64,000 nucleotides of DNA from an uncultured Spirochaetaceae bacterium (GCA_944389105.1 CALXLD010000001.1:1209-65208); one strand, 5' to 3'; counted from the stretch's first letter, positions 50,221 to 60,193 are shown. Notes: generated by a model not told the origin, from the letters alone. A program made the numbers and translations.

Positions 50221-51591
50221 ATGAGAGTTGTAATCCTTGGAGCTGGACGACGGGGTCTTCGTCTTGCGCGACACCTGATAGAGGAGAGGAAGTCAGTTGT
50301 CTTTCTTGATAGCAGCAGCGATAGATGCAACGCAGCTACTGCTAAGCTGGATTGCCTTGCGCTCTGCGGCTCTGCAACTGATATCGATATGCTTAAAGAA
50401 GCTGGCGCAGAAGATGCAGAAGCTGTAATTGCCGTCACCGACAGCGATGAGACGAATCTTGTAGCATGCGGTATAGTTTCTTCCTCTTTCAGACATGTGG
50501 GCATGACAATTGCAGCTATAAGGAGCATAAACTACCTTGGTACAGGGCTTGATGGCGATGTCCTTGGTATTACCCATATAGTCAATCCGGAGCAGGAGGC
50601 AGCAGAACGTATCGTAGGTATCATAGATACCGGTCTTTTCCGTGATTTCGAGTATTTCCCATATGCAGGTTTTGTCATGTTCTCAAGGAAAATTGAGAGC
50701 GGCAATCTTTTTGAAGGACGTACTCTTGCCCAGATAAGAAGGGAGATCCCGGGGCGCTTCGTTGTAATCGGGATTAGACGCAGGGGCAATGTCTTCACTC
50801 CATCAGGTGATACACTGATCCACGAAGGTGATGAGATAGGTCTTATCGTGGATGATGATGAATCCAGCGATATCTATGGACGCCTTTCGGATGTCCATCA
50901 GTCCCATATGAAGAGGATAATACTTGTAGGAGGAACAAGGATTGCCAAGTTTGCTTTGCTTTCCATGTCGGATGACCTGAGGCGGCGGGTAATGCTTGTT
51001 GAGAAGGACAGTGCAGTATGCGAGAAATTCGCGAGGGAATTTCCAGAAGTCATTGTTCTCAATGGGGCAATATCAGATGAGGCATTCTGGGAGGAGGAGA
51101 GGCTGTATCAATCGGATTTCCTTGCCGCAGTGACCGACAATGACGAGCTGAACATCATCGCTGCAAGCTATGCAAAGAGGCTAGGTACAAAGAGGTCTGT
51201 TGCGCTTATCAAGACAAACAACAGCTATATCCCGCTGGCAGAGGCTATGGATATAGATGGTGTCATTTCCACGACCAATACTACAGTTGATGCCATAGTG
51301 CGCTTTCTTCGAAGCGATAGGATACAGAGCCTTCATACGCTGTTTGACGGACAGCTTGAGGTCTATGAGTATCAGGTACAGCCAGGTTTCAGGTACATAG
51401 GAAAAAAACTCAGGGATGTTCCTTTCGGAGGGAAAATCACGATAGCAGGCGTGAGAAAGAAGGACGGCGATGATAACTATATCCCAGATGGAAACTATCT
51501 TCTTGAGGAAGGGGATACAATCCTTCTTGCCGCCGCCCATTCAAACTATGCTTATGTCGAGAAGCTCATGACTGCCAGAAAAGAATCATAA
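50221..51591 (+). CDS. trkA: Trk system potassium uptake protein TrkA (tandem RCK/NAD-binding)
   Basis: MRVVILGAGRRGLRLA, a second Rossmann motif (ILVGGTRIAKF), and two TrkA_C-like segments. Confidence 0.9.
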   Translation: MRVVILGAGRRGLRLARHLIEERKSVVFLDSSSDRCNAATAKLDCLALCGSATDIDMLKEAGAEDAEAVIAVTDSDETNLVACGIVSSSFRHVGMTIAAIRSINYLGTGLDGDVLGITHIVNPEQEAAERIVGIIDTGLFRDFEYFPYAGFVMFSRKIESGNLFEGRTLAQIRREIPGRFVVIGIRRRGNVFTPSGDTLIHEGDEIGLIVDDDESSDIYGRLSDVHQSHMKRIILVGGTRIAKFALLSMSDDLRRRVMLVEKDSAVCEKFAREFPEVIVLNGAISDEAFWEEERLYQSDFLAAVTDNDELNIIAASYAKRLGTKRSVALIKTNNSYIPLAEAMDIDGVISTTNTTVDAIVRFLRSDRIQSLHTLFDGQLEVYEYQVQPGFRYIGKKLRDVPFGGKITIAGVRKKDGDDNYIPDGNYLLEEGDTILLAAAHSNYAYVEKLMTARKES

Positions 51592-53031
51592 GCTGTCTCC
51601 GAAATCTCTCCTGAATGCTGCTATGAGCTTTTCCGGCCATGGTGATACCGGTTCAAGCCGCCCGAAGAAGAATCTCAGCGATGAAGGTTCCTCCACGAAT
51701 CGGAGGCCGCCGATCAGATTCCTGTTCTCATAAAGCCATGTGATTCTGTCTATCGCGTATTTTACCTGGGAAAGCGTAAATACCCTTCGTGGCATTGCCA
51801 GTCTCAGAAGCTCAACGGCTGCAAGATGCTCCGAGCCATCCGGTTCTCTCTGTTCGGATATCGTGCCCCTTTCCATTCCTCTTATCCCTCCGGCTATATA
51901 GACAGCGGCTGCCAATGCACCTGCCGGATATTCCTCCTGCCTTACATGCGGGATGAAACGGCTTGCATCAAGATGGCAGCCAAGACCACCTGGAGGTGTT
52001 ACCACCGGTACGTTGTTCCTTATCAGTTCATCGGTCATGTACTTTATGAAGAGCGGTCCCTGGGAAATGACATCCATATCCATGGTTTCATCAAGGCCGA
52101 CCGTCATTGCTTCCATTTCCCTGACACTCATTCCGCCATATGTGAGGAAGCCTTCGAACATAGGGACAAGTTCCCTCATCCTTAGATAGAGTTCCTTGCT
52201 GTGGATTGATATTCCGCCACCGCGTGCAAAGCCCAGCTTCCGCCCAGAGAAATAGATGATATCCATTTTCTCCGATATCCTTCTCGTGATCTCCCTGAGC
52301 GATAGGTCCTTCGCATATTCCTCCCTTGTCTTTATGAAATAGAGATTATCCTGCAGAAGGCTTGCATCCAGCACCGTCAGTACGCCGTATCGGTGGGCGA
52401 TATCCGCACTCTTCTCGATATTCTCCAGCGATAAAGGCTGTCCTCCAATGAGGTTCGTCCCGGCTTCTATCCTTATGAACGGGATTATATCGTGTTTTTC
52501 TGCAAGGAGCCTTTCAAGCTTATCCAGATCGAAATTGCCTTTAAATGGATAATTGCTTTCAATCTTTACCCCTTCATCTACCAATAGCTCTTCAACGATT
52601 CCTCCAAGCCTTGTGATATGTGCTTTTGTTGTCGTGAAGTGATAGTTCATCGGGATTATCGAACCTGGTCTGACGAATGTCATCGCAATTATGTTTTCAG
52701 CAGCTCTTCCCTGATGAGATGGCAGAAAGTATTCAGTTCCGAATATTTCCTTAAGCTTTTCTGTGAGCCTGGTGAATGTTGCGCTGCCTGCATAACTGTC
52801 ATCTGCAATCATCATTGAGGCAAGCTGTCTGTCGCTCATTGCATTTACGCCGCTGTCGGTGAGCATATCGAGGAATATGTCTTTGTTGAACAGCAGGAAA
52901 GTGTTGAATCCTGCTTCGGATATTGCTTCTGCTCTCCTTTCTACAGGTTGCAGATCGAGTTTCTGGACAATACGGACCTTATGCAGCTCCAGTGGAAGCT
53001 GCTCCCCGTTGTGGAAATGAATTTCTGCCAT
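51586..53031 (-). CDS. beta-eliminating lyase (tryptophanase / tyrosine phenol-lyase family, PLP-dependent)
   Basis: VRIVQKL...RAEAISEAGFNTFLLFNKDIFLDMLTDSGVNAMSDRQLASMM aligns with the TnaA/TPL N-terminus. FSGRKLG lies at the PLP-lysine position. I cannot distinguish Trp from Tyr specificity by eye. Confidence 0.85.
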   Translation of the reverse strand: MAEIHFHNGEQLPLELHKVRIVQKLDLQPVERRAEAISEAGFNTFLLFNKDIFLDMLTDSGVNAMSDRQLASMMIADDSYAGSATFTRLTEKLKEIFGTEYFLPSHQGRAAENIIAMTFVRPGSIIPMNYHFTTTKAHITRLGGIVEELLVDEGVKIESNYPFKGNFDLDKLERLLAEKHDIIPFIRIEAGTNLIGGQPLSLENIEKSADIAHRYGVLTVLDASLLQDNLYFIKTREEYAKDLSLREITRRISEKMDIIYFSGRKLGFARGGGISIHSKELYLRMRELVPMFEGFLTYGGMSVREMEAMTVGLDETMDMDVISQGPLFIKYMTDELIRNNVPVVTPPGGLGCHLDASRFIPHVRQEEYPAGALAAAVYIAGGIRGMERGTISEQREPDGSEHLAAVELLRLAMPRRVFTLSQVKYAIDRITWLYENRNLIGGLRFVEEPSSLRFFFGRLEPVSPWPEKLIAAFRRDFGDSL

Positions 53032-53040
53032 TTGTTACTC

Positions 53041-53069
53041 CTTTTTGTAAATTATTTACGCAAGGAGAG
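53041..53069 (-). promoter_or_regulatory. putative sigma70 promoter of the lyase gene (TTGACG-17 nt-AATAAT)
   Basis: On the minus strand, TTGACG lies at 53069-53064 and AATAAT at 53046-53041. SD AAAGGAG follows, and the ATG is at 53031. Confidence 0.45.
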
Positions 53070-53123
53070 CTGGCGTCAAATACAATATGCATGAAAAAGA
53101 ATAATAATTCAGAAAATATGCAA

Positions 53124-53687
53124 TCAGTTTGTTTTGTATGCAATCTGAGGATCTAGTCCGACAGACCTGAATGCCATATCGATAATGAGGTAGGTTATCC
53201 TATCCACGCTCATCTGGAATCCCTTTTCTATCCATTCCCTTATTATCCCGACAACCCCGTTTATTACAAAGATGAATGACATTTCCTTGTCATCGATGTT
53301 CCTGAAATTCGCGAGCTCATCATACTTATCCATTACCGCAGCTATAATCTGCTCGCCGAATGATCTGTCTGCTGAGGAAGTAAGGAGTATGTAGAAGGTG
53401 TTCCTGTTTTTCCTGATATATTCCATAAGCTGCTTCATTGAAAGAAAGAACGGCTTCTGATCAGTTGGCTTATAATCAGGGAGTTGTGAGATTATATCCT
53501 GCTCGATTTCTTCGATGAGATCCCTCGGGCATGTATAATAGGCATAGAAAGTGCTTCTGTTCACTGCCGCTTTCTGGCAGATTGCCTTGATTGTTATGTT
53601 CTCAAAGGATGTCGTAGTCAGAAGTTCTATGAGTGCTTCTTTCAGATATCCTTTTGTTCTTATTACCCTGGGATTATCGTTTTTCAC
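53124..53687 (-). CDS. TetR/AcrR family transcriptional regulator
   Basis: The N-terminal HTH is TIKAICQKAAVNRSTFYAYY, in a 187-aa protein. Confidence 0.85.
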   Translation of the reverse strand: MKNDNPRVIRTKGYLKEALIELLTTTSFENITIKAICQKAAVNRSTFYAYYTCPRDLIEEIEQDIISQLPDYKPTDQKPFFLSMKQLMEYIRKNRNTFYILLTSSADRSFGEQIIAAVMDKYDELANFRNIDDKEMSFIFVINGVVGIIREWIEKGFQMSVDRITYLIIDMAFRSVGLDPQIAYKTN

Positions 53688-53784
53688 AGAAAAAATGCTA
53701 GCCTATGACTTAAAAACCGTCAATTAATGCTTCCTGCGATATGTATGTGTTTTGCGTGTATATTTAAAAGAGTTTGTCAAGGAC

Positions 53785-53812
53785 TTCCAAAAGCGCAGTT
53801 TCATGATAAAAT
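53785..53812 (+). promoter_or_regulatory. putative promoter (TTCCAA-16 nt-TGaTAAAAT extended -10) driving the riboswitch-led operon
   Basis: TTCCAA at 53785-53790, TG at 53804-53805, and TAAAAT at 53807-53812. The predicted TSS near 53819 coincides with the 5' end of the P1 helix. Confidence 0.5.
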
Positions 53813-53817
53813 ACAAG

Positions 53818-53883
53818 TGATGTATAAGCCCCTGATAAGGAGGGGTGTCTCTACCGGCTGCCGTAAAGAGCCTAGCTACATCA
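53818..53883 (+). promoter_or_regulatory. purine (guanine-type) riboswitch-like aptamer
   Basis: P1 is TGATGTA (53818-24) paired with TACATCA (53877-83), and J1/2 is TAA. P2 is GCCCCT/AGGGGT with L2 GATAAGG (consensus GAUAUGG). J2/3 is GTCTCTAC (consensus GUUUCUAC), and L3 is CCGTAAA (an exact match to the consensus). A C at 53876 precedes P1', which is the guanine-type C74 position. SD GGAGGG at 53884-89 abuts P1'. Confidence 0.65.
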
Positions 53884-53897
53884 GGAGGGTTCTGTGT

Positions 53898-55151
53898 ATG
53901 GCGGCATTTGCGATTCATGGTGATATCATATGGACTGAGGAACCTGGAGCTTTCAGATACAATGAAGGCGGGTATCTCGTCATTTCCGATGGAAAGGTTG
54001 TCAGCGTATCTGATGTGAGACCTGACTGTGAGATAGTGGAAACCGATTCATCCCTTGTCATCCCAGGTCTGACGGATCTGCATCTTCATGCTCCCCAGTA
54101 TGCATTTGCTGGTCTGTATATGGATGAGGAGCTGCTGGACTGGCTCAATCATCATACATTCCCCGAGGAGGGAAAGTATTCCGATCCTGTCTATGCCGGC
54201 AAAGCATATTCAGCATTTGCTGATGATCTGCAGCGTACAGCGACTACAAGGGTGGCTGTCTTCGGGACAATACATACGGATTCAACTCTGCTTTTAATGG
54301 ATAAGCTGGAAAAAGCAGGAGTTGCCGGTTATGTGGGAAAGGTGAATATGGACCGGAATTCGCCGGATTATCTTACAGAGAATACTGATGCCTCAGTTGC
54401 TGAGACAGAGAGATTTATTTCCATGTCCAGCAGGTTCAGCAGCATAAAGCCGATAATAACACCGCGTTTCATACCATCCTGTACAGATAATCTCATGCAG
54501 TCTCTTGGGAGGATTGCTTATCAGCAGGATCTTCCGGTGCAGTCCCATCTTGATGAGAATCTTTCTGAAGTAGAGTGGGTTAAGGAGCTGTGCCCATGGG
54601 CATCGAATTATGCAGATGCATATAATCATTATTCCATGCTTGGACCCAAAAGCATAATGGCCCACTGTGTCTGGCTGAATGATGATGAAATAAAGCTTCT
54701 CCGTGAGAGCGGAACATATATAGCGCATTCCCCCTCGTCGAACACGAATCTCTCATCGGGAATCGCTCCGATAAGGAAATACCTTGAAGCTGGACTGAAA
54801 ATCGGGTTAGCCACTGATGTTGCCGGCGGTTCCTCTCTTTCGATGTTCAGGATGATTCAGGATGCAATAGCTGTAAGCAAGCTGAGATGGCGCTTCGATG
54901 CTTCAGGCGGCAAGGCGCTGAAATTCTCCGAAGCATTCTACCTCGCTTCTAAAGGAGGAGGCTCATTCTTCGGTACCACCGGTTCATTTGAAAAAGGGTA
55001 TGATGCGGATGTTGTCGTCATCGATGATTCAAGGCAGTCAACGATACTCCTTAAGTCCCTTTCCGTTCCGGAACGTCTTGAATTCTACACATACAGGCAT
55101 CCTGATGAGTTCATAAAAGCAAAATACGTCAAGGGAAGACGTGTTCTTTAA
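53898..55151 (+). CDS. guanine deaminase-like amidohydrolase
   Basis: Metal motifs are PGLTDLHLHAPQ (HxH), QSHLDEN, MAHCVWL, and GLATDVAGG with its Asp. This is the amidohydrolase TIM-barrel fold. SD AGGAGGG precedes ATG 53898. The ORF-track start at 53727 would translate through the promoter and riboswitch. Confidence 0.8.
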   Translation: MAAFAIHGDIIWTEEPGAFRYNEGGYLVISDGKVVSVSDVRPDCEIVETDSSLVIPGLTDLHLHAPQYAFAGLYMDEELLDWLNHHTFPEEGKYSDPVYAGKAYSAFADDLQRTATTRVAVFGTIHTDSTLLLMDKLEKAGVAGYVGKVNMDRNSPDYLTENTDASVAETERFISMSSRFSSIKPIITPRFIPSCTDNLMQSLGRIAYQQDLPVQSHLDENLSEVEWVKELCPWASNYADAYNHYSMLGPKSIMAHCVWLNDDEIKLLRESGTYIAHSPSSNTNLSSGIAPIRKYLEAGLKIGLATDVAGGSSLSMFRMIQDAIAVSKLRWRFDASGGKALKFSEAFYLASKGGGSFFGTTGSFEKGYDADVVVIDDSRQSTILLKSLSVPERLEFYTYRHPDEFIKAKYVKGRRVL

Positions 55152-55153
55152 GA

Positions 55154-55429
55154 ATGGCTATAATCATGGTCATGGAAAATACACAGGAAAACCGCATTGC
55201 GGTAATTGGGATAATCGTTGAGGACAAGGCGATGGCGGAGAGCGTCAATACTCTTCTTCACCAGTACAGTGACTATGTGATCGGAAGGATGGGGCTTCCT
55301 TACCGTGAGCGCAACATGAGTATTATCAGCGTTGTTGTAGATGCTCCTTCTGATATCATATCTGCGCTTTCTGGAAAGCTTGGACGTCTTCCGGGCGTAT
55401 CCAGTCAGGCCCTTTATACAAAGGCGTGA
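55154..55429 (+). CDS. TM1266-family iron-only hydrogenase system regulator (ACT / NikR-C-like small protein)
   Basis: 91 aa. RIAVIGIIVED...LLHQYSDYVIGRMGLPYRERNMSIISVVVDAPSDIISALSGKLGRLPGVS matches my memory of this family. It lies 2 nt after the deaminase stop and overlaps the hydE start. Confidence 0.75.
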   Translation: MAIIMVMENTQENRIAVIGIIVEDKAMAESVNTLLHQYSDYVIGRMGLPYRERNMSIISVVVDAPSDIISALSGKLGRLPGVSSQALYTKA

Positions 55430-56454
55430 ACGAGCTTTTAGATAAGCTTATCGAGACGAGGCATCTCCTTCTTGATGAATGGGAGATGCTTATCTCCTCC
55501 GATACTGATGACGAGGAGCTTTTTTCTCTTGCAAGGGAAAAGAGGGATTCTGTGTATGGCAGGAAGGTTTTTCTCCGTGCCCTTATAGAGTTTACATCAA
55601 TATGCCGCAATGACTGCAGGTACTGCGGCCTTAGGCGTTCTAACAGGAATGCAGGCCGCTATAGGCTGACAGAGGAAGAGATTCTCTCCGCTGTCGATAA
55701 AGGCCATGATGCCGGATTCAGGTCATTTGTGCTTCAGGGCGGAGAGGACGGATTCTTTACCGCGGAAAGGATGGTCCGGATCATAAAGGATATAAAGCAG
55801 TCCTTTCCTGATTCCGCTCTGACAATAAGCATCGGTGAACTTGATGATGATAGCTACCTTGCAATGAAGAACTCTGGTGCTGATAGGTATCTGCTGCGTC
55901 ACGAGACTGCAGATCCTGTACATTACAGAATACTGCATCCTGAACCGATGTCACTGGAGAACAGGAAACGCTGTCTCCGTTCTCTGAAAAGGTTCGGTTA
56001 TCAGACAGGAGCAGGAATGATGGTTGGTTCCCCAGGTTCTTCTTTCCATACTCTTGCTGAGGATATGGTATTCATATCTGAGCTTGAACCTGAGATGGTG
56101 GGTATAGGACCTTTCATACCTCACCATGACACGCCGATGAAAGGGGAGAAGACAGGGAGCGTTGAGCTTACCCTTCGTATGCTGGCGCTTACGAGGCTGC
56201 AGAATCCTCATGTTCTTCTTCCTTCTACCACAGCACTCGGAACGGCTGACGGAAATGGCCAGATAAAAGGTCTGGAAGCTGGGGCTAATGTTATTATGCC
56301 GAATATTACCCCTTTATATGTAAGATCTAAATATCTTCTGTATGATAATAAGAAGATTTCAGGCTATGAAGCAGCTGAAAACCTTGAGAAAATTAAATCA
56401 GAACTTATTGAAGCTGGATATGAACCATCACTGACCCGTGGTGATTACATATAA
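55426..56454 (+). CDS. hydE: [FeFe]-hydrogenase H-cluster radical SAM maturase HydE
   Basis: The CRNDCRYCGLRRSN CX3CX2C motif sits in a HydE/BioB-like context (ALIEFTSIC..., GEDGF, GAGMMVG). The start is GTG, overlapping the upstream TGA. Confidence 0.85.
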   Translation: MNELLDKLIETRHLLLDEWEMLISSDTDDEELFSLAREKRDSVYGRKVFLRALIEFTSICRNDCRYCGLRRSNRNAGRYRLTEEEILSAVDKGHDAGFRSFVLQGGEDGFFTAERMVRIIKDIKQSFPDSALTISIGELDDDSYLAMKNSGADRYLLRHETADPVHYRILHPEPMSLENRKRCLRSLKRFGYQTGAGMMVGSPGSSFHTLAEDMVFISELEPEMVGIGPFIPHHDTPMKGEKTGSVELTLRMLALTRLQNPHVLLPSTTALGTADGNGQIKGLEAGANVIMPNITPLYVRSKYLLYDNKKISGYEAAENLEKIKSELIEAGYEPSLTRGDYI

Positions 56455-56507
56455 TCAGAATTATATTTTGATATGAAAATGATTTTCTTCTTTTGAATAT
56501 CATATTA

Positions 56508-56525
56508 TTGCAAACATATTTGCAA
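56508..56525. promoter_or_regulatory. 18-bp perfect palindrome TTGCAAA-CATA-TTTGCAA (candidate operator, Rex-box geometry)
   Basis: A perfect 7-4-7 inverted repeat lies in the AT-rich hydE-hydG spacer. An extra TTGCAAA half-site lies at 56568-56574. Confidence 0.3.
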
Positions 56526-56760
56526 TATTTTATATATCGTATATATACAAAATTCATATTATAAAAATTGCAAATAATTATATTTATCATTTAATAATTT
56601 GACTGTATACAGATAGAATATCAATGGATATTGATTGATACATAGATATTGGTAATTGAATCTGATTTCTGGTATCATTTTCTCATCCGAACGAGGCTAT
56701 GGCGACGGGAGGAGTATCTAACTAACTGAAGGGGAAGATGACTGACCCGAAGGAAGAATT

Positions 56761-58179
56761 ATGTACGACAGATATTCGATGGTTGCGGATGATTTCATCG
56801 ATGATGGTGAAATCAATGAGACACTTCGCTTTGCTGATGAGAACAAGCACAATAGGGAACTTATTTCATCGATAATCGAAAAAGCCAGGAATAGGAAGGG
56901 GCTTGAGCACAGAGAAGCTTCCGTTCTCCTTGCCTGTGATATACCGGATCTCAATGATGAAATCTATAAGCTTGCAGGGGAAATCAAGAAGGATTTCTAC
57001 GGGGATAGGATCGTCATGTTCGCTCCTCTTTATCTCTCCAATTACTGTGTGAATGGCTGCGTATACTGTCCCTACCATGCGAAGAACAAGCATATTGCCA
57101 GAAAGAAGCTGACACAGGCAGAGATCGTTGCGGAAGTCACGGCATTGCAGGATATGGGACATAAGCGGCTTGCACTGGAAACTGGGGAGGATCCGGTGAA
57201 CTGCCCGATTGATTATGTACTTGAGTCAATAAAGACAATCTATTCAATCAAGCATAAAAATGGAGCGATAAGGCGCGTTAATGTAAATATCGCGGCAACT
57301 ACTGTTGAGAACTACCGCAAGCTCAAGGAAGCGGGAATCGGGACATACATACTTTTCCAGGAGACTTACCACAAGGCAAGCTATCTTGAGCTTCACCCAA
57401 CAGGACCGAAGCATGATTATAACTATCATACGGAAGCCATGGACAGGGCAATGGAAGGCGGCATTGATGATGTTGGCTGCGGTGTTCTATTCGGTCTTGA
57501 ACGATATCGATATGAATTTGCCGGATTGCTGATGCATGCTGAGCACCTGGAGGCTGTTCATGGTGTCGGGCCGCATACGATTTCGGTTCCTCGGATAAAG
57601 CATGCTGATGATATAGATCCGAGTGCATTCGACAATGGTATTGATGACGAGACTTTTCTCAAGATCATTGCCTGCATAAGAATCGCCGTACCATACACAG
57701 GCATGATCATTTCAACGCGTGAAAGCAAGAGCGTCAGGGAAAAAGCGCTGAGATTGGGAATCTCACAGATATCAGGCGGGTCAAGGACTAGTGTCGGTGG
57801 CTATGTTGTTCCTGAAAGCGATGATGACAGCTCTGCGCAGTTTGATGTAAGTGATAACCGCTCTCTTGATGAGGTTGTGAAATGGCTGATGGATCTCGGC
57901 TACGTCCCGTCCTTCTGTACTGCGTGCTATAGAGAGGGCAGGACAGGGGATAGATTCATGTCGCTATGCAAATCAGGGCAGATACAGAACTGCTGTCTGC
58001 CAAATGCGCTCATGACGCTCAAGGAGTACCTGATGGATTATGCTTCTCCGGAAACCAGGGCTGTTGGTGAAAAAGTAATTCAGGAGCAGCTTCAGGAAAT
58101 CCCGAATCCGAGGACAAGGGAAGTGACTGGACGCCATATTGCGGATATCGAGAATGGAGAGAGGGATTTCCGTTTCTGA
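56761..58179 (+). CDS. hydG: [FeFe]-hydrogenase H-cluster radical SAM maturase HydG (tyrosine lyase)
   Basis: SNYCVNGCVYCPYH CX3CX2C motif. The C-terminal auxiliary cluster motif is FCTACYREGRTGDRFMSLCKSG. The length is 472 aa. Confidence 0.9.
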   Translation: MYDRYSMVADDFIDDGEINETLRFADENKHNRELISSIIEKARNRKGLEHREASVLLACDIPDLNDEIYKLAGEIKKDFYGDRIVMFAPLYLSNYCVNGCVYCPYHAKNKHIARKKLTQAEIVAEVTALQDMGHKRLALETGEDPVNCPIDYVLESIKTIYSIKHKNGAIRRVNVNIAATTVENYRKLKEAGIGTYILFQETYHKASYLELHPTGPKHDYNYHTEAMDRAMEGGIDDVGCGVLFGLERYRYEFAGLLMHAEHLEAVHGVGPHTISVPRIKHADDIDPSAFDNGIDDETFLKIIACIRIAVPYTGMIISTRESKSVREKALRLGISQISGGSRTSVGGYVVPESDDDSSAQFDVSDNRSLDEVVKWLMDLGYVPSFCTACYREGRTGDRFMSLCKSGQIQNCCLPNALMTLKEYLMDYASPETRAVGEKVIQEQLQEIPNPRTREVTGRHIADIENGERDFRF

Positions 58180-58193
58180 TTTAGGGTAGAAGA

Positions 58194-59420
58194 ATGAATG
58201 CAGCACCATCTTCCGAAAGAATCCATATTTCATTTTTCGGCATGAGAAATGCCGGAAAGTCCAGTGTGATGAATAGGGTTATAGGGCAGGAGCTTTCTAT
58301 AGTCTCCAGCAAGAAAGGTACGACTACCGATCCTGTGAGAAAGTCAATGGAACTTCTTCCAATCGGTCCTGTTGTCATGATTGATACTCCTGGTCTGGAT
58401 GACGAAGGAGAGCTTGGCGAACTCAGAATAAGGAAAGCGAAGCGGGAACTTGTAAGGACGGATGCTGCTGTTGTAGTAGCTGAAGCAGGTGAAAGACTGA
58501 ATGATTTACTGATAAACCTGATAAATACAATCCGTAATAGGAATATTCCTTATGTAATATGTGTCAATAAAATTGATACCGCGGCTAATACTGAAGGAAT
58601 CCTGAAGGACCTGGAGAATCTTGGGATAGGCAGAGAATCCATTTCCCTTGTCAGTGCAATTACCGGAGAAGGCATAAACGATCTCAAAAAGAGCATTGCA
58701 AAAGCCATAGGGACAGAAGAAGCAAGACCTATAGTACGGGATCTTTTCTCTCCAGGGGACACTGTGATGCTGGTAATCCCAGTTGACAAGGCTGCTCCAA
58801 AAGGAAGACTTATCCTGCCGCAGCAGCAAAGCATAAGAGACATACTTGATGGTGATGGAAGAGTCCTTGCTGTAAAGGAAGGGGATGTTGCTTCTTCCTT
58901 GTCGCTCCTTTCAGCGCCGCCAAGACTTGTCATAACAGACAGCCAGGCTTTCGGTACCGTTGCAAAGCAGGTTCCGGAGAGCATCCCGCTGACATCATTT
59001 TCCATCCTCTTTGCCCGATATAAAGGCAATCTTGAAAGTGCTGTGAAGGGGATTTCACAGCTGAGAAAGCTTAAGGGAGGGGAGAGCATACTCATTTCTG
59101 AAGGATGCACCCATCACAGGCAGTGCGGGGATATCGGGACGGTGAAGATACCGCGATGGATAAAGGAGTACACAGGAAAGGAGTTTGAATACTCCTTCTC
59201 TTCAGGAACTGAATTCACGGAGAATCCGGAAAAGTACTCCCTGATAATCCACTGCGGTGGATGCATGCTTACGGAAAGGGAGATGAGATACCGCTACAGA
59301 GAAGCGGAGGAGAGCGGTACTGCAATTACCAATTACGGTATACTTATTGCAGCTGTCCACGGGATACTTCCCCGTTCGCTCTCCCTTTTCCCTGATATTC
59401 TTTCCTATCTGCAGCGGTAG
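58194..59420 (+). CDS. hydF: [FeFe]-hydrogenase H-cluster maturation GTPase HydF
   Basis: G1 is FGMRNAGKSS, G3 is DTPG, and G4 is NKID. The C-terminal cluster ligands are EGCTHH...IIHCGGCM. Confidence 0.9.
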   Translation: MNAAPSSERIHISFFGMRNAGKSSVMNRVIGQELSIVSSKKGTTTDPVRKSMELLPIGPVVMIDTPGLDDEGELGELRIRKAKRELVRTDAAVVVAEAGERLNDLLINLINTIRNRNIPYVICVNKIDTAANTEGILKDLENLGIGRESISLVSAITGEGINDLKKSIAKAIGTEEARPIVRDLFSPGDTVMLVIPVDKAAPKGRLILPQQQSIRDILDGDGRVLAVKEGDVASSLSLLSAPPRLVITDSQAFGTVAKQVPESIPLTSFSILFARYKGNLESAVKGISQLRKLKGGESILISEGCTHHRQCGDIGTVKIPRWIKEYTGKEFEYSFSSGTEFTENPEKYSLIIHCGGCMLTEREMRYRYREAEESGTAITNYGILIAAVHGILPRSLSLFPDILSYLQR

Positions 59421-60193
59421 ACGAAGATCGATGAATTCCCTGAGCTGTAGCGCTTCATCTCATATAGTTCGGGGAATGCTTTTATCATATCTGAAAGCTT
59501 TGAGAATCCATAGGTTTTTGTGTTGAATTCAGGCTTTACGCGCTTTATATAATTCCCTGCCGCCGTAAGCGGAGTAAAGCCATCATCATCCTGGAATTTC
59601 TCGTAGGCGATTCTGACAAGATTGTGTATTTCCGCGATATCCGCATCGAAGTATTCCAGATGGAACTTTACTGGCTCATCGTTTCGTTTTCCGCTCTTTG
59701 TGCTCTTCTTCTCTTTCTGTATCTGGGGTTTCCTGTCATTCTCCGATGAATCCAGATACTCAAGGTAGATAAAGTCATCGCAGGCGGAGCAGAATGCTTC
59801 CGGTGTTTTCTTTTCACCGACTCCGATAACGTATATTCCCGATTCCTTCAGCCTGACTGCAAGCGGCGTGAAATCACTATCCGAGGAGACAATGACGAAG
59901 GCATCGTACATTTCCGTATTCAGAAGATCCATTGCATCTATTACGATGGCAATATCCGTAGTATTCTTTCCTGCAACATAATCGAACTGCTGTTCAGCTT
60001 TTATTGCAAGCCTTTTGATTTCATCTTCCCACTTTGCGAGAAGTCTTTTCTTCCAGTTTCCATAGGCTTTCTTTACGACAATGCGCCCATAGGCAGAGAC
60101 TTCATGAAGCACAGCCTCAAGTTTTGTCAGCTGCGTATTGTCCGCATCTATGAGAACGACCATTTTCTGGAATTCACCGGTTTCTGTATTCAT
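59405..60193 (-). CDS. NYN-domain (LabA-like) protein with C-terminal OST-HTH/LOTUS domain
   Basis: VVLIDADN, YGRIVVKKAYGNW and FVIVSSDSDFTPLAVRLKESGIYVIGVG indicate a NYN/PIN-like nuclease fold. The C-terminal FTPLTAAGNYIKRVKPEFNTKTYGFSKLSDMIKAFPELYE resembles LOTUS. Confidence 0.8.
   Translation of the reverse strand: MNTETGEFQKMVVLIDADNTQLTKLEAVLHEVSAYGRIVVKKAYGNWKKRLLAKWEDEIKRLAIKAEQQFDYVAGKNTTDIAIVIDAMDLLNTEMYDAFVIVSSDSDFTPLAVRLKESGIYVIGVGEKKTPEAFCSACDDFIYLEYLDSSENDRKPQIQKEKKSTKSGKRNDEPVKFHLEYFDADIAEIHNLVRIAYEKFQDDDGFTPLTAAGNYIKRVKPEFNTKTYGFSKLSDMIKAFPELYEMKRYSSGNSSIFVYRCR

Follow-up and report, generated by a model that had tools for sequence, protein, structure and literature searches.

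Why should a gene for guanine deaminase (GDA), preceded by a riboswitch-like leader, be located directly ahead of the genes for hydrogenase maturation? The question is raised by a locus in a 64-kb stretch of DNA, referred to as the window, from an uncultured Spirochaetaceae bacterium (GCA_944389105.1, CALXLD010000001.1:1209-65208), whose genome sequence of 2.13 Mb is 90.7% complete (designated as G000; other genomes, contigs and loci likewise carry our own labels starting with G, C and L). An initial annotation had proposed that the deaminase and a β-eliminating lyase encoded nearby could supply ammonia or tyrosine for building the H-cluster, or that production of the maturases could be tied to purine status. 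With a probability of roughly 60%, we instead favour a reading in which a guanine-inducible GDA unit has been inherited side by side with the half of the maturase cluster that encodes the TM1266-family protein and HydE (TM1266-hydE), and co-expression of the two would be partial and possibly incidental.

The order of the genes was confirmed by a listing of open reading frames (ORFs) and by profile searches. It comprises a TetR gene on the minus strand, the purine riboswitch, GDA, TM1266, hydE, a spacer, hydG and hydF, and the placement of all genes, with a 2-nt gap, a 4-nt overlap and a 306-bp spacer, matches the sequence as initially annotated. The genes of the cluster are:

53898-55151, plus strand: GDA, clostridial type, amidohydrolase superfamily (TIGR02967, PDB 2I9U)
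55154-55429, plus strand: TM1266-family small protein, putative regulator of hyd genes (TIGR03959, 116.5 bits versus a cut-off of 60.8; PDB 2NZC)
55426-56454, plus strand: HydE, radical S-adenosylmethionine (SAM) maturase with a GTG start (TIGR03956, 473.6 bits versus 254.6)
56761-58179, plus strand: HydG, radical SAM maturase (TIGR03955, 921.7 bits versus 312.15)
58194-59420, plus strand: HydF, GTPase scaffold (TIGR03918, 526.6 bits versus 325.55; HydF_dimer and HydF_tetramer domains)

HydE, HydG, HydF and TM1266 all pass the cut-offs of their equivalog hidden Markov models. The stop codon of GDA (TAA, 55149-55151) is followed after 2 nt by the ATG of TM1266 at 55154, with 55172 as the alternative start going by homology, and the GTG of hydE at 55426 overlaps the TM1266 stop codon (TGA, 55427-55429) by 4 nt, so that both junctions are operon-like, as previously described. 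When read in the window, neither TM1266 nor hydE is preceded by a Shine-Dalgarno sequence (SD), and no convincing intrinsic terminator was found between GDA and hydE. The AT-rich spacer of 306 bp (56455-56760) separates hydE from hydG, and the 3' end of hydF extends 16 nt into a convergent NYN/LOTUS gene (59405-60193).

The history of this arrangement was traced in 81 species-level genomes of gut spirochaetes, which comprise G000 and 80 relatives from the same genus; two relatives of the genus carry the name Candidatus Ornithospirochaeta. HydE is found in 27 of the 81 genomes (26 of the 80 relatives). GDA directly precedes either TM1266-hydE or hydE in 15 of these 27 hydE-bearing species and is unlinked in the other 12. 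The linked genes are part of a syntenic block with the order TetR, riboswitch-GDA, TM1266-hydE, hydG-hydF, a convergent NYN gene and a gene for pyrophosphate-dependent phosphofructokinase (PPi-PFK). Since the NYN and PPi-PFK flanks are equally syntenic, the adjacency of GDA and hyd genes is no better conserved than that of unrelated neighbours. Mapped on a tree of HydE proteins, the linked state requires one change, and on a tree of GDA proteins at least four. Outside the genus, about 74 GDA loci from Firmicutes, Actinobacteria, Bacteroidota, Synergistota and other spirochaetes contain no hyd genes within 8 kb, and GDA was not found in any of the 28 hydE loci taken from other Spirochaetia. The comparison of gene neighbourhoods that had been suggested as a check thus gives a divided answer, with a linkage that is kept within part of the genus but was not found beyond it. 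As judged from the trees and the sampled loci, the linkage came about once, is confined to the genus and was subsequently lost at least four times. We propose that the two modules would have become neighbours once, in the ancestor of part of this genus of gut spirochaetes.

The losses have taken different forms. In G014, G071 and G067, hydE, hydG and hydF (hydEGF) have been precisely deleted, and in G054 and G062 GDA adjoins the NYN gene and a divergent hyd cluster is located elsewhere. In one clade the hyd genes are found elsewhere and GDA is followed by an aroB-like gene. Conversely, G002 (97% complete) and G024 (99%) carry hyd genes and no GDA at E<=1e-30. Two features of the rearranged loci deserve mention in their own right. 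After the deletion of hydE, hydG and hydF, G071 and G067 have retained an orphan TM1266 between GDA and the NYN gene (L075 and L076), which is intact and 86% identical, and which may reflect either a role beyond adjacent maturases or a recent deletion. In L045, L049, L051 and L056, which belong to the clade where hyd does not adjoin GDA, the 3-dehydroquinate-synthase-like (aroB-like) gene lies on the same strand about 30 nt behind the riboswitch-controlled GDA, and thus represents another unrelated gene in the position downstream of GDA.

The maturase genes themselves are unevenly distributed. As stated in the initial annotation, no structural gene of an [FeFe]-hydrogenase is found in the 64 kb, and a search of the contig that contains the window gave no match to Fe_hyd_lg_C; three HydA-like genes with this domain are located on contig C24, where two Rex-like genes are found beside hydA genes. 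Across the genus, 78 of the 81 genomes, and 43 of the 44 of high quality, contain a high-scoring catalytic domain of HydA, whereas HydE is found in 11 of the 44 high-quality genomes. In five HydE-less genomes that were checked, HydG was not found either, and hydG and hydF accompany hydE in nearly every genus locus fetched. The maturase cluster behaves like an accessory and often-lost island, and about two-thirds of the species keep HydA without maturases.

The second partner of the linkage has a wider distribution, and its properties do not set it apart. The window GDA scores narrowly below the equivalog cut-off of TIGR02967 (363.1 versus 375.4 bits) and below that of PRK09228 (313.7 versus 351), and it aligns over its full length (residues 7-416) with the protein of Clostridium acetobutylicum of known structure (2I9U, E 1.3e-112). 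The metal-binding and catalytic motifs HLH, SHLDEN, AHC and TD correspond to HAH, SHLSEN, AHC and SD in 2I9U, and the human and E. coli guanine deaminases match as well. By sequence, the enzyme is an ordinary clostridial-type guanine deaminase, its job is guanine breakdown, and there is no sign of a dedicated role in H-cluster assembly. GDA is present in 72 of the 80 relatives and matches to the purine riboswitch in 49 of the 80. A comparison of coordinates places the riboswitch directly upstream of GDA for 48 of 51 matches, and the TetR gene is conserved in divergent orientation in nearly all relatives with this type of GDA, irrespective of the presence of hyd genes. A model of the genus aptamer also detects the riboswitch directly before GDA homologues in 11 Lachnospiraceae-type loci. 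In these gut Firmicutes (Mediterraneibacter, Lachnoclostridium, Velocimicrobium and Schaedlerella), the riboswitch is equally located directly upstream of a GDA homologue with about 50% identity, but these units differ from the window in having no hyd maturase genes within 8 kb. The pairing of riboswitch and GDA is thus found repeatedly in gut anaerobes and is self-standing, independent of hyd genes. We thus envisage a first, purine-catabolic module, which would be composed of the divergent TetR gene, an extended -10 promoter, the guanine riboswitch and GDA. In the window, the elements of this module ahead of the GDA coding region are the following:

53124-53687, minus strand: TetR-family regulator, divergent from riboswitch-GDA (PF00440 and PF14278)
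53744-53758, plus strand: intergenic motif TATGTGTTTTGCGTG, conserved in at least six relatives, recurring at the corresponding position in L035, L038, L041, L042, L043 and L046, with varying flanks
53804-53812, plus strand: predicted extended -10 promoter TGATAAAAT of the riboswitch-GDA transcript
53818-53883, plus strand: guanine-type purine riboswitch aptamer (P1-P2-P3; RF00167)
53884-53889 and 53898-53900, plus strand: expression platform, as derived from fold predictions, made up of the SD GGAGGG, which adjoins P1, and the start codon of GDA

The leader, which had been described as riboswitch-like, belongs to RF00167, with a score of 50.1 bits versus a gathering score of 37, a span of 53800-53898 and a match to the full model (1-102), and it is the sole purine riboswitch in the genome. 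In an alignment of 23 aptamers from the genus, 93.6% of the cells are paired and both sides have changed in 11 of 17 pairs in a compensatory manner. The covariation score is reached by none of 500 shuffled controls, and slid controls show only 35-46% pairing. The columns of the UAUAA junction, of GU(N)UCUAC and of C63 are invariant in the same copies and the equivalents of U22, U47 and U51 are conserved, while the equivalent of A73 is a G in the window and either A or G in relatives. Guanine specificity follows from the position equivalent to C74, because this is an invariant C among the 23 copies. On the basis of alignment and covariation, the leader is a genuine guanine-type purine riboswitch. 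A TGnTAnnAT box precedes P1 by 6-10 nt in all close relatives (TGGTAGAAT, TGCTAAAAT, TGTTAGAAT, TGCTATAAT and others). The start of GDA is assigned to the ATG at 53898 and not to the start of the ORF at 53727, because the latter lies upstream of the riboswitch and GGAGGG precedes 53898. The motif TATGTGTTTTGCGTG, located between the TetR gene and the promoter of the riboswitch, may be a TetR operator or part of a divergent promoter.

The features of the expression platform allow a prediction of how guanine would act. The SD abuts the 3' strand of P1 and is followed after 8 nt by the AUG. In the unconstrained minimum free energy (MFE) structure (-36.4 kcal/mol), the 5' strand of P3 together with L3 pairs with the AUG region and the 3' strand of P3 pairs with the SD. 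When constrained to contain the aptamer, the fold has an energy of -27.7 kcal/mol, a value in which the contributions of the ligand and of tertiary interactions are not counted. The alternative helix is the MFE structure in most of 15 close homologues and is preserved by compensatory changes in L052. In a second clade of the genus, we find a classical anti-SD that overlaps the 3' strand of P1. Both designs predict that guanine would switch the translation of GDA on, a logic that is expected for the gene of a catabolic enzyme: in the absence of guanine, the P3/L3 strand would be base-paired to both the SD and the AUG of GDA, and in its presence the aptamer would fold and free both. We have also considered an off-switch, in which an extension of P1 covers the SD, and rejected it since ACAAG, which flanks P1 on its 5' side, lacks complementarity to GGAGG. 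Likewise, a search for a terminator between the aptamer and the ATG did not reveal a credible intrinsic candidate.

This architecture can be compared to two known systems. The add gene of Vibrio vulnificus, which encodes a purine deaminase, is controlled by a translational adenine riboswitch that is turned on when the ligand frees the SD and start codon. The window leader resembles it in the location of a purine aptamer before a purine deaminase gene and in the predicted pairing of ligand-free strands with SD and AUG. It differs in its specificity nucleotide, which is a C of the guanine type instead of the U found in add, in a platform of only about 15 nt with an SD that starts right after P1, and in the controlled gene, which encodes a guanine deaminase and has unrelated hyd genes downstream. 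The RF00167 guanine riboswitch of Bacillus subtilis xpt-pbuX is a transcriptional off-switch with a terminator. The window leader belongs to the same aptamer family and likewise has the three-way junction, kissing loops and C74, whereas it contains no terminator before the ATG and its predicted logic is a translational on-switch.

To what extent could a guanine signal reach the maturases? The hyd genes form two units, TM1266-hydE and hydG-hydF. The spacer between hydE and hydG varies in length, from about 100 bp up to 3.5 kb in the relatives, and takes up unrelated genes on either strand. In the window it harbours the promoter-like extended -10 sequence TGGTATCAT (56670-56678), and every relative has an extended -10 before hydG. 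hydG-hydF is a unit of its own because it has its own extended -10, a conserved leader before hydG and inserts in the preceding spacer. Read-through of transcripts that start at the riboswitch promoter would probably account for part of the transcription of TM1266-hydE, in which case translational coupling across the 2-nt gap and the 4-nt overlap, together with polarity, would relay some of the guanine signal. TM1266-hydE would probably also be transcribed from an internal TATAAT, which would give rise to a leaderless mRNA. The elements downstream of GDA to which we refer are:

55159-55164, plus strand: TATAAT box, candidate internal -10 element 7 nt before the ATG at 55172, proposed from positional conservation
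56726-56756, plus strand: leader motif CUGAAGGGGAAG-N4-CUGACCC-GAAGGAAG, which reaches the hydG SD

A hexamer with the sequence TATAAT, TATGAT or TAGTAT precedes ATGGA(A/C)AA by 6-7 nt in G000, L025, L069, L071, L075 and L076. In the TATAAT subclade the remaining spacer varies and the ATG at 55172 has no SD, and the conservation of the box suggests a possible internal promoter that would give a leaderless TM1266-hydE mRNA. Other members of the genus have solved the same junction differently. In G055 and G096, an SD is located within the last codons of GDA and the gap to TM1266 is 2 nt, a design that, as far as the sequence tells, is plainly operonic. In the clade that has no riboswitch, TM1266 has relocated to another part of the genome, and GDA overlaps with hydE at ATGA or TGATG sequences. 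TM1266 was retained elsewhere in four of five checked genomes of the clade that does not have it at the locus.

A conserved leader motif characterizes the start of the second unit. In 22 of 24 loci of the genus, the consensus CUGA(A/U)GGG(G/A)AAG-N5-9-CUGACCC-N-GGAG extends into the SD of hydG; besides the window, the loci with the motif before hydG include L025, L028, L064-L073, L077-L083, L023 and L027. A similar motif precedes TM1266 in the unlinked clade (L081, L082, L020, L021, L023 and L027), and is also located beside orphan TM1266 genes in two other spirochaetes (L022:9848 and L032:10222, both on the minus strand). Apart from these two genes, a regular-expression search of class-level hydE loci gave no match outside the genus, and an Rfam search of the hydG leader at E<=10 returned only chance matches to snoRNAs. 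The motif could be a binding site for a protein on the RNA, with TM1266 or CsrA-like proteins as candidates.

With these elements, an adaptive regulatory coupling can be formulated, in which production of the maturases is tied to the availability of purines. Guanine would open the riboswitch, GDA, TM1266 and HydE would be translated in a coupled chain and TM1266 would in turn act on the hydG leader, so that the whole maturase set would follow the guanine status, with guanine as a potential signal of nucleic-acid-rich conditions in the gut or of the supply of GTP for HydF. The tight junctions without SD before TM1266 or hydE, the SD in the 3' end of GDA in G055 and G096, the ATGA and TGATG overlaps in the TM1266-less clade and the retention of TM1266 in that clade are all in line with such coupling, as are the location of the motif at the hydG SD in most loci and its occurrence near orphan TM1266 genes of two other spirochaetes. 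Still, we regard this proposal as unlikely. The clade without riboswitch keeps GDA-hydE in the absence of any purine sensor, 12 of the 27 hydE-bearing species have their hyd genes away from GDA, the linkage arose once and was lost at least four times, and the window genome contains a candidate internal promoter before TM1266. Moreover, a translational riboswitch alone does not control downstream cistrons. Of the purine control that had been ascribed to the island, the guanine riboswitch is thus real, but it would act on the translation of GDA, so that any control of the maturases would be indirect.

The alternative link between the two modules is metabolic. The initial annotation had mentioned an association of ammonia-lyase genes with hyd genes, which is borne out by published work: 79% of authentic hydF genes have aspA, sdaA or ilvA in their vicinity (+/-20 ORFs), and AspA or SdaA can supply the nitrogen of the dithiomethylamine (DTMA) ligand in vitro via the aminomethyl-lipoyl-H-protein (Pagnier et al., 2024, PMC11736057). 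By analogy, GDA might have replaced AspA as dedicated source of ammonia for the bridgehead nitrogen of DTMA, possibly assisted by the lyase. In favour of such a role, an aspA-like gene is located between hydE and hydF in 11 of the 28 hydE loci from other Spirochaetia, AspA was not found in the window genome (best score 34.8 bits versus a cut-off of 681), no aspA-like gene is contained in any genus hyd locus fetched and GDA is the first cistron of a series with coupled junctions. The window locus resembles the published type of hyd operon (PMC11736057; Spirochaetia loci L181-L192) in the clustering of a gene for an ammonia-releasing enzyme with hydE, hydG, hydF and TM1266. The differences concern the enzyme, which is a GDA of the amidohydrolase superfamily and not a lyase of the fumarase/aspartase family, and its position at the 5' head before TM1266/hydE and not between hydE and hydF. 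GDA also has its own riboswitch and TetR and mostly occurs without hyd genes, and neither GcvH nor GcvT is detectable in the window genome. None of aspA, sdaA or ilvA lies within about 10-20 ORFs of hydF at the window locus, and three serine-dehydratase-like genes are located on other contigs of the genome.

The proteins expected to accept the ammonia were searched for as well. GcvH and GcvT were not found in the window genome, to which the search for GcvT was confined. For GcvH, which was searched in all 81 genus genomes, we obtained only partial matches of <=26 bits inside ORFs of about 700 amino acids and no bona fide H-protein, compared to 141-149 bits in the same search of four other Spirochaetia with aspA-containing hyd operons. 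Since GcvH and GcvT (and AspA) were not found, the published route from ammonia to the H-protein is unavailable here.

The lyase, which had been viewed as a further partner in the hyd neighbourhood, is encoded next to the TetR gene, and both are located directly upstream on the other strand as originally described:

51586-53031, minus strand: β-eliminating lyase of the tryptophanase/tyrosine-phenol-lyase family (NF009709, 557.6 bits versus a cut-off of 285; PF01212)

The protein scores below the equivalog cut-offs of TIGR02618 (415.9 versus 720.7) and TIGR02617. Among the relatives it is confined to the closest ones, G012, G063, G074, G064 and G067. As partner of the maturases it was dismissed, since its distribution tracks that of TetR-GDA, with which it travels even in G067, where hydEGF has been deleted.

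The proposal that GDA and the lyase provide ammonia or tyrosine for the H-cluster therefore does not hold up well, and we consider GDA as dedicated source of DTMA nitrogen to be very unlikely. The riboswitch-GDA unit is distributed genus-wide and mostly without hyd genes (GDA in 72 and HydE in 26 of 80 relatives), G002 and G024 carry hydEGF without GDA, 12 of the 27 hydE-bearing species are unlinked and the arrangement has not recurred independently in the roughly 74 GDA and 28 hydE loci elsewhere. Moreover, neither of the proteins that convert ammonia to the aminomethyl donor, GcvH and GcvT, was detected in the genomes searched (the genus and the window genome, respectively), serine-dehydratase-like genes are available elsewhere in the genome, the lyase has stayed with TetR-GDA where hydEGF is deleted and the deaminase is of an ordinary kind.

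Three observations weigh against the inherited juxtaposition that we favour. The tight junctions have been kept while GDA diverged to as little as about 58% identity, they were established anew as ATGA overlaps of GDA with hydE after TM1266 had left the locus, which hints at selection for co-expression, and the genus has lost aspA, with an ammonia-releasing enzyme now heading the operon, as predicted by the hypothesis of a replacement. That the GDA operon feeds hydrogenase maturation in either sense, by delivering DTMA nitrogen on a path that bypasses the H-protein or by the binding of TM1266 to the hydG leader with guanine gating the maturases, nevertheless appears decidedly improbable to us.

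The initial annotation had regarded a purine-sensing RNA in front of hyd maturases as previously undescribed, and this view is supported by a full-text search of the literature, which retrieved no paper with both a purine riboswitch and hydrogenase maturation. The components, including the guanine riboswitch, GDA and HydE, HydG and HydF, are all of known kinds, and it is their arrangement that is new. A functional coupling would mean that the published connection between ammonia-releasing enzymes and assembly of the H-cluster also takes in a purine deaminase, and that hydrogen metabolism in gut spirochaetes is linked to their purine status. As the evidence stands, the locus is mainly an example of an inherited gene order that mimics a pathway. 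The presence of hydEGF without detectable GcvH or GcvT questions the universality of the H-protein route to the DTMA ligand. Observations made on the side, namely the gap concerning the H-protein, the presence of HydA without maturases and the unclassified hydG leader motif on the ribosome-binding site, may outweigh the linkage itself.

Further observations concern the spacer between hydE and hydG. It contains a perfect Rex-box-like palindrome in the window (TTGCAAACATATTTGCAA, 56508-56525), which we dismissed as a conserved hyd site since it is absent from the hyd loci of relatives, even with one mismatch allowed. The idea that the spacers of relatives might hide an aspA-like gene was equally discarded, as the inserts prove to be other genes. 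The spacer is an insertion hot spot, which has acquired an esterase-like gene, genes for Big-domain surface proteins and for an ATPase, and a toxin-antitoxin pair, the last of which is found in G009, where two small antitoxin- and toxin-like genes are located between hydG and hydE (L024:6685-7252).

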